From: Escherichia coli
GTDB taxonomy: Bacteria; Pseudomonadota; Gammaproteobacteria; Enterobacterales; Enterobacteriaceae
NCBI RefSeq assembly: GCF_050920415.1
Contig: NZ_CP169309.1
Length of the DNA stretch: 64,000 bases
Strand: one strand, 5' to 3'
This document shows, piece after piece, positions 17,927-52,133 of the stretch. The notes under the pieces were generated by a model. It saw only the letters and a list, made by a program, of their open reading frames with translations. It was not told where the DNA came from and did no database searches. Each line of letters opens with the position of its first letter. Position 1 is the stretch's first letter. A program made the translations under genes and the position numbers.

Positions 17927-18333
17927 GAGCGGTTATTCTGCTCTTTCAGCAAATCACGGATCTCGGTCAGTAATACTTCTTCTTTAGTTGGTGCAGGTGC
18001 AGCTGCTGGTTCTTCTTTTTTCCGATTCAGTTTATTGATTAGCTTAATCGCCATAAAGATGGCAAAGGCCACAATCAGAAAATCAAAGACGTTTTGAATG
18101 AAGACACCGTAATGCATAACGACTGCTGGGATATCCCCTTGCGCATCGCGTAGCGTGACAGCAAACTGTTTAAAGTCGATCCCACCAATTAATAAACCCA
18201 GCGGCGGCATGATGATATCTGCAACCAGTGAAGAGACAATCTTACCGAAGGCCGCACCGATAATGACACCCACTGCCAAATCCACCACATTTCCGCGCAT
18301 TGCAAATTCGCGAAATTCTTTAATAATGCTCAT
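17923..18333 (-). CDS. mscL: Large-conductance mechanosensitive channel MscL (136 aa)
   Basis: [57 protein letters not shown]... Confidence 0.97.
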
Positions 18334-43126: not shown

Positions 43127-43789
43127 ATGGCAAAAAGAACCAAAGCTGAAGCCCTGAAGACCCGGCAAGAACTGATTGAAACTGCCATCGCCCAGTTTGC
43201 GCAGCATGGCGTAAGCAAGACGACGCTCAACGACATTGCCGACGCCGCTAACGTTACGCGTGGCGCTATCTACTGGCACTTCGAGAACAAGACCCAACTG
43301 TTTAATGAGATGTGGTTGCAACAGCCTTCATTGCGGGAGTTAATCCAGGATCACTTGACTGCTGGGTTAGAGCATGACCCGTTTCAGCAATTGCGTGAAA
43401 AATTGATTGTTGGCTTGCAATATATTGCCAAAATTCCCCGCCAGCAGGCGTTGCTGAAAATCTTATATCACAAATGTGAATTTAATGATGAGATGCTGGC
43501 AGAGGGAGTGATACGCGAAAAGATGGGCTTTAATCCGCAGACTCTCCGCGAAGTATTGCAGGCATGTCAGCAACAAGGTTGTATAGCAAATAATCTCGAT
43601 TTAGATGTTGTGATGATTATTATTGATGGTGCCTTCAGCGGAATTGTTCAAAACTGGTTAATGAATATGGCGGGTTATGATCTTTATAAACAAGCACCCG
43701 CACTGGTCGATAACGTATTAAGAATGTTCATGCCAGATGAAAACATAACGAAATTAATTCATCAAACGAATGAATTAAGTGGCATATAA
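43127..43789 (+). CDS. acrS: TetR-family repressor of acrEF/acrAB, AcrS (EnvR) (220 aa)
   Basis: ORF MAKRTKAEALKTRQELIETAIAQFAQHGVSKTTLNDIADAANVTRGAIYWHF... TetR HTH; divergent from acrEF. Confidence 0.93.
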   Translation: MAKRTKAEALKTRQELIETAIAQFAQHGVSKTTLNDIADAANVTRGAIYWHFENKTQLFNEMWLQQPSLRELIQDHLTAGLEHDPFQQLREKLIVGLQYIAKIPRQQALLKILYHKCEFNDEMLAEGVIREKMGFNPQTLREVLQACQQQGCIANNLDLDVVMIIIDGAFSGIVQNWLMNMAGYDLYKQAPALVDNVLRMFMPDENITKLIHQTNELSGI

Positions 43790-43791
43790 AT

Positions 43792-43971
43792 TCACATTCT
43801 GTCCTGAAAATTCAGTTCGTCACAGTTAACCAGTTTTAGTGGATTAACTGAGTTCATATTGCGGCATTTGTCTGTTTCTGTTGCCAGCAGTTCAATCCAC
43901 TGCATCAGTAAAGTATCAAACAGAAAAACGAAGACAGCGAAAACGACGAGCCACCAATACTTGCGAATCAT
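43792..43971 (-). CDS. yhdU: Small membrane protein YhdU (59 aa)
   Basis: ORF (internal Met) MIRKYWWLVVFAVFVFLFDTLLMQWIELLATETDKCRNMN...; single TM. Confidence 0.75.
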   Translation of the reverse strand: MIRKYWWLVVFAVFVFLFDTLLMQWIELLATETDKCRNMNSVNPLKLVNCDELNFQDRM

Positions 43972-44054
43972 TACCTGAGCCTGTGCATGTTTAACCAAGT
44001 CTGGCAGGAAATATACACGAAATGAATAATCTGAAAACCAGGCTTACACTTCCT

Positions 44055-44939
44055 TTACTTTGCAATGAGATCGGGGTCAACTTCGCTTAACCGGCTTCGT
44101 TTTGACAGGTTGCCGGTCTTTCTTTTTTTCACTTTCGCCAGTTCTTCCGCAGAGTAATGCGACGTGACATCCAGCCGTCGAAGCCCCATTTTGATGTACT
44201 CGCTGTTGATCTCAATACCAATGAATTTTCGCCCGCTGGCGGCGGCTACGGCACCGGTAGTAAAGCTACCGGCAAACGGGTCGAGAACGATATCGCCTGG
44301 GTTGGAAGAGGCGAGAATAATGCGTTTCAGTAAGGCTTCCGGTTTTTGCGTCGGGTGATTCTCATATTCATCCATCAAATAACGCACGCGCGGAAAATCC
44401 CAGACGTTACCCGGTACTTTTTGATGATTGTAAGGCTGTGGAGGATTTTTGCGATAATCGATCAACGCGCGCTGCGATCCGGTTTTGGCTTCTACCAGAA
44501 TAGCATCACCGTTGAACGTGTAGTTCTTTGCGTCTTTCACCATCATCAGGATGGGTTCGTACATGGAGCCGTAGTGTTTTTTCGCCTGCACTCCAGAACT
44601 GTCATATGACCAGACGATGCGACTTTTGATGGTAAAAAGCTTGCGGCACTGGAGATCGATAAAGGGCATGTTTTCCGTGCTGTTCATGATGTACATGCTG
44701 CCCTGCTTTTTCAGAACGCGGTGGCACTCTGCAATCACTTCAAACAGCCAGTCGATAAACAGATCTTCTTTCCAGGCTTCGATCAGACCATCAAAATTTT
44801 TACCGATGTTATACGGTGGGTCGGCAAAGATCAGATCTACACTTTCGGCGGGGATCTTTTTAAGTTCGGTTAATGCATCACCCTGGATGATGGTCTTTGC
44901 TTCATTACCAAATCGGGTCGGTTCACATCCTGTTCTCAT
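44055..44939 (-). CDS. yhdJ: Orphan DNA N6-adenine methyltransferase YhdJ (294 aa)
   Basis: ORF MRTGCEPTRFGNEAKTIIQGDALTELKKIPAESVDLIFADPPYNIG... with DPPY catalytic motif and FxGxG SAM-binding motif (DPFAGSFTTG). Confidence 0.93.
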   Translation of the reverse strand: MRTGCEPTRFGNEAKTIIQGDALTELKKIPAESVDLIFADPPYNIGKNFDGLIEAWKEDLFIDWLFEVIAECHRVLKKQGSMYIMNSTENMPFIDLQCRKLFTIKSRIVWSYDSSGVQAKKHYGSMYEPILMMVKDAKNYTFNGDAILVEAKTGSQRALIDYRKNPPQPYNHQKVPGNVWDFPRVRYLMDEYENHPTQKPEALLKRIILASSNPGDIVLDPFAGSFTTGAVAAASGRKFIGIEINSEYIKMGLRRLDVTSHYSAEELAKVKKRKTGNLSKRSRLSEVDPDLIAK

Positions 44940-45024
44940 GGTCACTCCCTTTGTGACACCTATAAAAAAGGCGCTTCCCCATGCCGAGTAGCGCCTTTTT
45001 AATCAAGCATTTAGCTAACCTGAA

Positions 45025-45321
45025 TTAGTTCATGCCGTATTTTTTCAATTTTTTACGCAGCGTACCACGGTTGATGCCCATCATCAGCGCAGCACGGGTC
45101 TGATTACCACGGGTGTATTGCATCACCATGTCCAACAGGGGCTGTTCTACTTCAGCCAGTACCAGCTCATAGAGGTCATTCACATCCTGACCGTTCAGTT
45201 GAGCAAAATAGTTCTTCAGTGCCTGTTTAACCGAGTCACGCAGGGGTTTTTGGGTTACCTGATCCTGAGAGTTAACGGTAGAAACGGTCAGTACGTCAGA
45301 ATTTACGCGTTGTTCGAACAT
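45025..45321 (-). CDS. fis: Nucleoid-associated DNA-binding protein Fis (98 aa)
   Basis: [101 protein letters not shown]. Confidence 0.98.
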
Positions 45322-45346
45322 AGTTCTGTCAGCTCTTTATTTCTGT

Positions 45347-46312
45347 TTACGCAAAATTTTCGAAGTATGCCTCCAACGCCTCCAGCTGTTCGCTGGCATC
45401 CTCAATGGCGTTGAATGTGCGCCGAAACTGGTCATTTGGAGCGTGTTCCTGGAGATACCAGGAAACGTGTTTACGTGCAATTCGGTACCCTTTTGCCGGA
45501 CCATAAAAGTCATGCAGTTCCCGAACGTGCGCGCAAAGCAAGCGCTTAACCTCTGCCAAAGGCAGCGGGGGCAGCAACTCCCCAGTGTCCAGATAATGCT
45601 GGATTTCCCGAAAGATCCAGGGTCTTCCCTGAGCTGCGCGGCCTATCATCAGGGCATCCGCCCCTGTATAGTCGAGCACAGCTCTGGCTTTAAGCGGGTC
45701 AGTAATGTCGCCATTCGCGATAACCGGAATGGAAACTTTCTGCTTAACTGCCCGAATACTGTCGTACTCAGCTTCTCCATTGAACAAACAGGCGCGTGTA
45801 CGGCCATGAATGGTCAGAGCCTGAATGCCACAGTCTTCAGCCAGTTGGGCAATCTCTTCGCAGTTACGGTGTTCCGGCGCCCAGCCGGTGCGAATCTTCA
45901 GGGTAACAGGAACGTCCACTGCATTGACGACCTCGGTAAGGATCGATTTAACGACATCCGGGTACTGCAAGAGGGCTGAACCTGCGAGCTTGCGATTCAC
46001 TTTTTTAGCCGGGCAACCCATATTGATATCAATAATCTGGGCACCGCTTTCCACGTTAATACGTGCTGCATCTGCCATTTCTTTCGGATCGCTACCAGCA
46101 ATTTGCACGGTGCGAATACCGGGTTCATCAATGTGCACCATCCGTAAACGAGATTTGTCGCTTTCCCAAACCTGTGGGTTAGAAGACATCATCTCGGATA
46201 CTGTCAATCCGGCTCCCATCTCGTAGCACAACGTCCGAAAAGGTCTGTCTGTAATGCCAGCCATGGGCGCTGCGATCAGGCGATTTCTGAGCTGATATTG
46301 TCCGATGCGCAT
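45347..46312 (-). CDS. dusB: tRNA-dihydrouridine synthase B (321 aa)
   Basis: [47 protein letters not shown]...; co-operonic upstream of fis. Confidence 0.96.
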
Positions 46313-51156: not shown

Positions 51157-52133
51157 GAGTGGGTTCCGTACTCTTTGTTTAGTGTGATTGTGACAGGCGT
51201 TTCACCGCCGTCTGTAAAGCGTATGCCCCGACAGCTGTATGCATAGCGATAAATTCCAGCAGGCCGGGACGCCGGTCTATTTTGCCCCAGAGTGTCAATG
51301 TTAGACTTGACGGACATTGTGCAGCGATCTGCTGCTATCCTCCGGCAAAAAACAAAATATACCTTCGTTGCGCCAATGTCACCTTTTCCGCAGCGCAAAA
51401 ACTGCGTCAGGGAGGACGAGGTCGCACATTATAACGATTTCGTAGCAATTGGCAGCTAAATACTGGTCTTATCAGGGAAGATAATCAACAGCTAACATGT
51501 AAATAACCTTCAACACCGTGTAATTTGCAACAAGCCGCACAATTCACGAAATTAGCGCTATCGTCGACGGAACTTCTTATAACGTAAGGCTAAAAGCTGT
51601 AAAGCCAGCTCTGCGAAGATGAGGGGCTGCAATGAGATGATCCTCACAGACCACAAATAATGTAGGGATGTCAGGATCGCGGCAAGATAGACGACATTAC
51701 GCAGCGGTTGCTGGTGATTACTCAATTTTCACGGCATCGTCTGGATAAACGTGAATGCTAAAGCACGCAAAATCAACAAACTGACAATGCTCAGCATCAA
51801 ATACGTTCGAGTGGTTAATTTGTAGGCAAATAAAATCAGATTATTCACCCCATGGTACCAGAAATCAGTAACAGGTTAAGCGTAGCGTCGCCCAGGCAAA
51901 GCACCATAAACCTAACAGGCGACGGAGGCGTATCAATAATGGCTGTTTAGTGGAGTAACAGTGCGCATCAATTTATGGTCAGTCGAAATCATGACTTTCC
52001 AGTTTGGATGATGTTGTACAACTTCATGACCAAGATGTTCGACGAAAGCTGTCCGGCTAACCGCTTTTCCCGTTAACCGATTGAATAATGATTTCAAAAT
52101 GAGTTCCCTCTCTTATTAATCCTTGCTAAATGG

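Follow-up and report, generated by a model that had tools for sequence, protein, structure and literature searches.

YhdJ of Escherichia coli, a solitary ATGCAT adenine methyltransferase encoded behind the fis terminator and probably left over from an EcoT22I-type restriction-modification pair

This work concerns yhdJ, a gene found at 44055-44939 in a stretch of 64,000 nucleotides of Escherichia coli DNA (contig NZ_CP169309.1), the whole of which we call the window. We conclude, with a probability that we would put at roughly 0.9, that yhdJ encodes a solitary ATGCAT methylase of the M.EcoKII type, probably a relict of an EcoT22I-type pair, and that it lies behind the fis terminator, probably depends for its expression on read-through or on a weak promoter within fis, and is kept under purifying selection. 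The open reading frame (ORF) itself is nothing other than yhdJ / M.EcoKII of E. coli as characterised before, just as a preliminary description of this DNA, made from the letters alone, had named it.

The identity of the gene is clear from several sides. The NCBIfam equivalog NF008572 ("adenine-specific DNA-methyltransferase", PRK11524) matched YhdJ with 588.5 bits against a cut-off of 292, residues 1-294 lying on profile positions 1-294, and Pfam PF01555 (N6_N4_Mtase) covered residues 34-251 with 217.6 bits against a gathering score of 26.7. With YhdJ of K-12, the window protein shares 289 of 294 residues (98%); the K-12-to-window substitutions H19Q, A24T, I233A, A259T and T293A all fall outside the catalytic motif and the S-adenosylmethionine (SAM) motif. 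The gene is also annotated in a RefSeq genome that is 100% identical here. A mechanical ORF listing opened the frame at the GTG at 44945, two codons upstream of the ATG at 44939. Since this GTG falls within the Shine-Dalgarno sequence AAGGGAG, the ATG is the real start, and the coordinates of the preliminary description stand. Directly 5' of the AUG, on the minus strand, there is a 5-bp hairpin, GUCAC-AAAGGGA-GUGAC (44930-44960), the loop and 3' arm of which hold part of the Shine-Dalgarno sequence; it is present in Escherichia and not conserved in Salmonella.

The preliminary description had also pointed to a DPPY motif and a SAM-binding motif. Both are intact on alignment, the latter in a form proper to the clade, and no loss of motifs was seen. 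In the DPPY motif, the D, the second P and the Y are invariant in 82 of 82 aligned clade members, and the NHPTQKP block is nearly invariant across the 82 relatives. Motif I of the YhdJ/M.EcoT22I clade reads DPFxG(S/T)F, the last G of the textbook FxGxG being replaced by F in all 82 sequences. We do not regard this replacement as a defect because it is invariant in the clade and is present in the active K-12 enzyme. Motif IV precedes motif I, which is the beta-class order, and the best relative of solved structure was CcrM of Caulobacter (6PBD, E 2.7e-32, residues 10-265), with DPPY and motif I aligned, a resemblance that chance would not produce. YhdJ shares with CcrM the beta-class architecture, DPPY before the SAM motif, and both are orphan adenine methylases. 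However, YhdJ scored only 136 bits with the CcrM equivalog NF050803, the cut-off of which is 830; CcrM has 366 residues with an extra C-terminal domain of about 80 residues, whereas YhdJ has 294 residues and no such domain; and CcrM, an enzyme for GANTC with a large regulon, is essential or regulated by the cell cycle, properties that are not known for YhdJ. Thus, YhdJ is "CcrM-like" solely in the sense of beta-class membership: it belongs to the beta-class N6_N4 methylases and to the YhdJ equivalog, and is neither a CcrM orthologue nor a component of a restriction-modification system.

No restriction partner accompanies yhdJ. As annotated in RefSeq, the identical genome has the gene order acrF-acrE, acrS (on the plus strand), yhdU, yhdJ, fis, dusB, prmA, panF, yhdT, accC, accB, which agrees with the earlier placement of yhdJ between acrS/yhdU and fis and directly downstream of the latter, the two genes being 85 nt apart on the same strand. 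According to Pfam and NCBIfam scans and the annotation, all neighbours are identified non-restriction genes, and the locus holds no restriction, specificity or controller gene. A profile of the partner restriction enzyme described below found no match when all six frames of the 64 kb were searched. The claim that yhdJ, with acrS, yhdU, fis and dusB as its neighbours, lacks a restriction partner was therefore borne out. A search for a relic of the restriction gene, with a profile of 40 full-length restriction enzymes at maximum sensitivity, returned nothing better than E ~3 among 9266 stop-to-stop peptides from the window and 24 enteric loci; in control loci, frameshifted copies were recovered by the same procedure. 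The matches that might have made a relic of the region downstream of yhdJ, or of yhdU itself, were of chance level only (E ~3 or worse) and were rejected. Likewise, a KwaA-like match of YhdU (E 0.004, 15 bits, in a hydrophobic peptide of 59 residues) was judged to be noise.

We then compared yhdJ with its relatives, scanning one genome per species of GTDB r220 by means of peptide patterns; of 435 confirmed relatives, the best 80 were kept. Among these 80, 24 were chromosomes of Escherichia, Salmonella or Citrobacter, with 77-97% identity. The surroundings of yhdJ proved to be the same throughout them: fis lies about 80 nt upstream in 24 of 24 loci, and yhdU and acrS follow downstream in the same order in all 23 loci that reach far enough (in the remaining one, L039, the contig ends within yhdJ). 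A restriction gene was absent in 24 of 24, and a gene of the PDLC03455 family adjacent to the methylase, as a Type II restriction-modification system would have it, was found neither in the window nor in the enteric chromosomal loci. The other 56 relatives, with 58-71% identity, came from gamma- and beta-proteobacteria, cyanobacteria (Nostoc, Anabaena, Prochlorococcus), Bacteroidota and others, a patchy scatter of the kind shown by mobile restriction-modification genes.

In 48 of these 56 distant relatives, an ORF of 343-393 codons abuts or overlaps the 3' end of the methylase gene, eight loci being without it. It is co-directional with the methylase in Bacteroidota-type loci and convergent in proteobacterial and cyanobacterial ones. 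Its product matches the PADLOC REase_II model PDLC03455 (E 1e-149) and bears the NCBI name "type II restriction endonuclease"; neither a Pfam family nor a solved structure in the Protein Data Bank was found for it, and only PADLOC recognises it. This R.EcoT22I-type family (loci L026-L083; L085:4549-5580, pEC22) has more than 4000 homologues in protein databases and a conserved block, TGRTNANDGGIDF...FQVTE, which may be its catalytic core. The partner gene is frameshifted in L052, L059 and L057 and shortened in L076. Such frameshifted, shortened or absent partners make the route from pair to orphan visible elsewhere in the family. Overall, the comparison suggests that yhdJ has remained partnerless only in Escherichia, Salmonella and Citrobacter, as far as the best 80 of the 435 relatives go and with the eight other loci also devoid of the partner ORF.

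The closest relative of the window YhdJ outside chromosomal YhdJ proteins is found on a plasmid. The restriction enzyme family occurs on 11 of 72,556 PLSDB plasmid records, among them small plasmids from E. coli, Klebsiella and Enterobacter that can be mobilized; on pEC22 and on small ColE1-type plasmids of E. coli and Enterobacter, a controller and the convergent methylase are present too, and the Klebsiella plasmid carries the restriction enzyme and the controller. On an E. coli contig of 4.4 kb of the ColE1 type, a controller with a helix-turn-helix domain is followed by the restriction enzyme and then by the convergent methylase. EcoT22I, AvaIII and NsiI are isoschizomers that recognise ATGCAT. 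One of the E. coli records is pEC22 (NC_025058.1), which a later paper, citing the original report, describes as a plasmid "coding for MR.EcoT22I" (Elhai, Cai and Wolk 1994, as cited in PMC5052281). Its methylase, M.EcoT22I, is 76% identical to the window YhdJ over 267 residues and resembles it in the DPPY and DPFxGSF motifs and in the reported site ATGCAT. M.EcoT22I stands tail to tail with a restriction enzyme of 343 residues, next to a controller, on a mobilizable plasmid; in contrast, the window yhdJ is chromosomal, has neither a restriction or controller gene nor a relic of one, and differs in the C-terminal 27 residues. In a neighbour-joining tree, chromosomal YhdJ proteins formed one clade, sister to plasmid M.EcoT22I, and both were nested within restriction-linked lineages. 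The similarity between YhdJ and M.EcoT22I is probably already known to the REBASE curators.

Such a topology suggests that the methylase half was captured once, before the split between Escherichia, Salmonella and Citrobacter. YhdJ would then be the surviving methylase half of a Type II restriction-modification pair of the EcoT22I/AvaIII/NsiI type, and yhdJ would have become fixed, devoid of its restriction gene and behind the fis terminator, in the common ancestor of these three genera. The same kinship bears on specificity. Together with the sister position of the two clades, the 76% identity to M.EcoT22I supports the ATGCAT assignment independently of the K-12 literature, and from this and the 98% identity to the K-12 enzyme we infer that the window allele methylates the second A of ATGCAT. 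The ATGCAT specificity named in the preliminary description thus appears sound, resting on both identities and on the literature (PMC4444293).

What has been published on the activity of the enzyme differs between species. When over-expressed, YhdJ/M.EcoKII is reported to methylate the second A of ATGCAT and thereby to protect DNA from NsiI (Broadbent et al. 2007, J Bacteriol 189:4325, as cited in PMC4444293), and the account given in PMC4444293 describes deletion or disruption of yhdJ as viable, with no detectable phenotype. In wild-type K-12, ATGCAT methylation was not detected (PMC4444293, PMC9150344), and ATGCAT even served as the negative-control motif in one of these studies (PMC9150344). 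Among 84 E. coli strains, only three methylases, yhdJ included, occurred in more than 80%, and no core EcoKII methylated sites were found (PMC13360123). The YhdJ of Salmonella Typhimurium is active, with 513 sites, and is the most condition-dependent methylase of that organism (PMC9239280). Its deletion altered 12 transcripts in LB medium and none in the medium inducing Salmonella pathogenicity island 2 (SPI-2 medium), one of the 12 genes holding a methylated site; growth and motility showed no phenotype, and virulence was almost unaffected (PMC9239280). Most S. Paratyphi A strains have a truncated yhdJ allele (PMC9239280). About 61% of Salmonella ATGCAT sites were methylated, more of them in mid-exponential than in late stationary phase, and the differentially methylated sites showed no association with expression changes (bioRxiv 10.64898/2026.01.27.702048).

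The arrangement of yhdJ behind fis offers a possible reason for its silence in E. coli. The dusB-fis operon ends in an intrinsic terminator (folding energy of 44930-45030, -29.5 kcal/mol; z = -3.2 relative to shuffled sequences), and the ATG of yhdJ follows about 24 nt past the U-tract, the gap holding just the ribosome-binding site. The entire 85-nt spacer, including the terminator and the ribosome-binding site, is base-for-base identical to that of K-12. Hairpin and T-tract hardly change among the 24 enteric loci, of which three differ by one base or a 1-nt indel; the flanking spacer varies, and the distance from the T-tract to the yhdJ start is roughly 18-26 nt. On the minus strand, a consensus scan of the region upstream of yhdJ, the interior of fis included, gave no sigma-70-like site. 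As there is no room for a promoter between terminator and ATG, transcription of yhdJ probably proceeds via read-through or from a weak promoter within fis. Were yhdJ transcribed only by these two routes, dependence on read-through would account for the little or no methylation obtained from the chromosomal copy in E. coli. This model would agree with a gene that is silent in K-12, with the higher methylation that Salmonella shows in exponential phase and with a yhdJ dS that is saturated (see below), and the position behind the fis terminator plausibly explains why yhdJ is silent in K-12. We read the closeness of fis more as a limit on the expression of yhdJ than as a sign of regulatory partnership.

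Two further ideas about this spacer were tried and abandoned. A promoter difference as the cause of activity in Salmonella and silence in E. coli found no footing, as the consensus scan shows no upstream sigma-70 site in either; and a small RNA in the spacer (Rfam STnc40, 25.6 bits against 45, lying on the terminator) was not reproduced in two Salmonella loci and was put down to chance, so that Rfam yields no genuine match at the locus.

The terminator also marks a boundary in sequence evolution. The ratio of nonsynonymous to synonymous divergence (dN/dS) of yhdJ was 0.12 against K-12 and 0.056 against E. whittamii, and between genera dN was about 0.13 with dS saturated. Across genera (43127-46312 of the window against loci L007-L017), the dS of fis was 0.05-0.19 and that of dusB about 0.3, whereas yhdJ and acrS were saturated; the boundary in synonymous divergence falls at the fis terminator. 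The low dS of fis and dusB is typical of highly expressed genes. Purifying selection on yhdJ indicates that the gene is maintained, is not a dead relic and has some fitness value.

Within E. coli, yhdJ is nearly universal. Over the 1.7 kb of 43700-45400, the window matches E. coli strain MFDS1022581 at 100% identity and IAI39 and CE10 at 99.8%; this stretch was found in 5425 of 5426 complete E. coli genomes. For yhdJ alone, 5417 of these genomes gave a match, 5387 of them at a coverage of at least 80%; nine genomes had no match and about 30 more had a partial one. Together with the synteny in Escherichia, Salmonella and Citrobacter, this is the picture of a vertically conserved gene. One natural loss is seen in E. 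coli LR-25 (L003:6001-6912), where an IS1-flanked deletion runs from yhdJ codon 66 through yhdU, acrS and acrEF and joins the yhdJ remnant to the yhdW-Z region; PGAP labels this stump as an "RsmD family RNA methyltransferase" pseudogene. In locus L096, the yhdJ allele is C-terminally shortened to 285 residues. Another case is GCA_043358095.1 (L091:6290-12297), in which the Fis protein is identical, the fis terminator is kept and yhdJ is absent. Compared with 44930-45030 of the window, homology ends exactly at the last base of the T-tract of the terminator, so the base after the fis terminator is a junction for lineage-specific DNA. What follows it in this genome is a phage- or satellite-like block, with ORFs of 314 residues (weakly HK97-capsid-like), 462 residues (AAA_25) and 765 residues (unassigned).

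Several points weigh against our overall conclusion. The first and most serious concerns expression: the Salmonella spacer shares the terminator, and its ribosome-binding site is the weaker one, but several hundred ATGCAT sites are methylated there (PMC9239280); the terminator by itself therefore does not account for the contrast between the two species. Our promoter scan, a crude one by consensus, was limited to sigma-70, and a weak match (TCGGCA-17-TATAGG, 8/12) overlaps the fis terminator. As for the evolutionary route, the YhdJ tree is a distance tree with no support values, and the absence of yhdJ from Klebsiella and Enterobacter chromosomes is likely, judged from the best 80 of 435 relatives and from peptide patterns. 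Finally, the window allele differs at five residues from the K-12 enzyme for which the specificity was established.

Why the gene is kept may be answered in more than one way. It is tempting to suppose that ATGCAT methylation acts as a genome "vaccine", shielding the host from being killed when EcoT22I-type plasmids enter or are lost, in the way that Dcm guards against EcoRII; in a variant of this idea, methylation by YhdJ might let host DNA or phages pass EcoT22I-armed neighbours. A complete system of controller, restriction enzyme and a 76% identical methylase does exist on the small mobilizable plasmids of E. coli and Enterobacter, the enzyme and its controller are also present on the Klebsiella plasmid, and yhdJ is under purifying selection though no regulon is known (PMC9239280). 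There is a precedent, too (PMC11602122): Dcm, which is related to M.EcoRII, is likewise a solitary methylase of the core genome with a close plasmid restriction-modification counterpart of the same specificity and host range (PMC11602122, PMC4444293). However, Dcm produces 5-methylcytosine at CCWGG, is expressed, methylates the genome, is paired with vsr and protects against EcoRII, whereas YhdJ produces N6-methyladenine, is silent in K-12 and has a protective role that is only proposed. The lack of detectable ATGCAT methylation in K-12 (PMC4444293, PMC9150344) means no protection under the conditions tested, the level of about 61% methylated sites in Salmonella is too incomplete for protection (bioRxiv 10.64898/2026.01.27.702048), and with just 11 of 72,556 plasmid records carrying the restriction family, the selective pressure would be rare. 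We consider this explanation unlikely, if the best of the alternatives. A bolder version, in which YhdJ is a domesticated M.EcoT22I-type methylase gated by read-through, its methylation tracks the fis burst on nutrient upshift, and it is kept as such a vaccine against plasmid killing, we hold to be a little less probable still.

The preliminary description had put yhdJ forward as a candidate epigenetic regulator, being an orphan beside fis; the published data (PMC4444293, PMC9150344, PMC13360123, PMC9239280) do not support this. On such a reading, ATGCAT methylation controls particular genes and is possibly coupled to growth phase through fis. An orphan gene that is conserved and under purifying selection would suit it, as would the rank of ATGCAT as the most condition-dependent motif of Salmonella (PMC9239280), and the mid-exponential excess of methylation would fit co-expression with fis (bioRxiv 10.64898/2026.01.27.702048). 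Against it stand the Salmonella deletion, which shifts only a dozen genes in LB medium, a single one with a methylated site, and none in SPI-2 medium (PMC9239280); methylation differences that are not linked to expression (bioRxiv 10.64898/2026.01.27.702048); and the want of methylation in K-12 and of core sites in 84 E. coli strains (PMC4444293, PMC13360123). Nor do the ATGCAT sites of the window speak for it, as their depletion is unremarkable among six-base palindromes and only three of the seven are outside long ORFs. For laboratory conditions, the regulator reading is largely refuted, and we give it a low probability overall.

With regard to these sites, the window holds 7 of them against 22.2 +/- 4.3 in dinucleotide shuffles, the expectation of a maximal-order Markov model is 11.3, and the depletion ranks 20th in comparison with the other 63 six-base palindromes. 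We had considered avoidance of ATGCAT as a footprint of past restriction and dropped the idea, the depletion not being specific. Four of the sites are inside long ORFs, and one site, the enzyme's own target, is within yhdJ itself and absent from the K-12 allele. Of the three outside, one (51239-51244) precedes the start of accB by about 83 nt, within the leader or promoter region of accBC, and the others are at 18112 and 55340.

Could yhdJ simply be a decaying, functionless relic of a lost restriction-modification system? It is silent in K-12, a few E. coli genomes have lost it wholly or in part (9 of 5426 with no match and about 30 partial, one through the IS1-associated deletion), most S. 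Paratyphi A strains have the truncated allele (PMC9239280), and its high dS is typical of weakly expressed genes. The selection data contradict this reading, with a dN/dS of 0.06-0.12 for comparisons inside Escherichia and a frame that has stayed intact across three genera despite saturated dS. Moreover, the motifs are invariant, more than 99% of E. coli genomes have an intact gene, and the enzyme is active when over-expressed and, in Salmonella, at its native level (PMC4444293, PMC9239280). We regard decay as very improbable. That yhdJ is half of a cryptic restriction or defence system with an unrecognised or non-adjacent partner, e.g., yhdU, is hardly credible: the best PADLOC model for YhdJ is indeed a Type II restriction-modification methylase (515 bits), a defence-prediction language model scores YhdJ high (bioRxiv 10.1101/2025.01.08.631966) and yhdU has its very weak KwaA-like match (E 0.004), but the cognate restriction profile is silent in the window and 24 enteric loci, yhdU encodes a DUF2556 membrane peptide of 59 residues among neighbours all identified as non-restriction genes, and the tolerance of K-12 for unmethylated ATGCAT and for loss of yhdJ (PMC4444293) is incompatible with an active cognate nuclease.

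The features of the locus are collected in Table 1. In the spacer between yhdJ and yhdU, yhdU may have its own promoter, independent of yhdJ; the TTTTCA and TATATT hexamers found there recur at the same position in Salmonella (L016 4903-4930). Salmonella loci L089, L092, L093 and L094 (7665-9764) and L016 (5282-7381) have a gene for a 699-residue MHYT-GGDEF-EAL (cyclic-di-GMP) protein between yhdU and acrS, a gene that the window and the other E. coli loci lack.

Table 1. Features of the yhdJ locus, in window coordinates.
Feature	Position	Strand	Basis
yhdJ coding sequence, 294 aa, solitary beta-class N6-adenine DNA methyltransferase (M.EcoKII type)	44055..44939	-	ORF, NF008572, PF01555, K-12 alignment, RefSeq annotation
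Shine-Dalgarno sequence AAGGGAG, 5 nt before the yhdJ ATG	44945..44951	-	sequence; identical in K-12
Catalytic motif IV codons, DPPY, residues 40-43	44811..44822	-	aligns with DPPY of CcrM 6PBD
NHPTQKP block codons, residues 194-200, typical of the methyltransferase class	44340..44360	-	aligns with HPTQKP of CcrM and 8URK
SAM-binding motif I codons, DPFAGSFTTG, residues 220-229, clade-specific FxGxF variant	44253..44282	-	alignment
ATGCAT site inside yhdJ	44873..44878		sequence comparison
Intrinsic terminator of the dusB-fis operon: 11-bp G+C-rich stem, inner 3-bp stem, U6 tract	44964..45000	-	fold
fis, upstream neighbour, same strand	45025..45321	-	NF001659 180.9 bits; annotation
Sigma-70-like site TTTTCA-16-TATATT, yhdJ-yhdU spacer	44037..44010	-	consensus scan
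yhdU, downstream neighbour, DUF2556, 59 aa, small hydrophobic membrane peptide	43792..43971	-	PF10831 123 bits; annotation
acrS (envR), TetR-family repressor of acrEF, convergent with yhdU and yhdJ	43127..43789	+	NF007430 434 bits; annotation

We are aware that yhdJ is textbook content of E. coli K-12 (M.EcoKII in REBASE) and that the gene itself is already known. The angles that are modestly new are the explicit sister relationship to the plasmid MR.EcoT22I systems and the arrangement in which the gene abuts a terminator. In practice, strains with the window allele are to be assumed NsiI/EcoT22I-sensitive unless yhdJ is induced. A modest question is raised as well, namely, why a methylase that is silent in E. 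coli stays under purifying selection in more than 99% of strains. If the bolder version of the vaccine idea were true, transient methylation blunting the killing by EcoT22I-type plasmids would represent a second genome vaccine in the style of Dcm and EcoRII.

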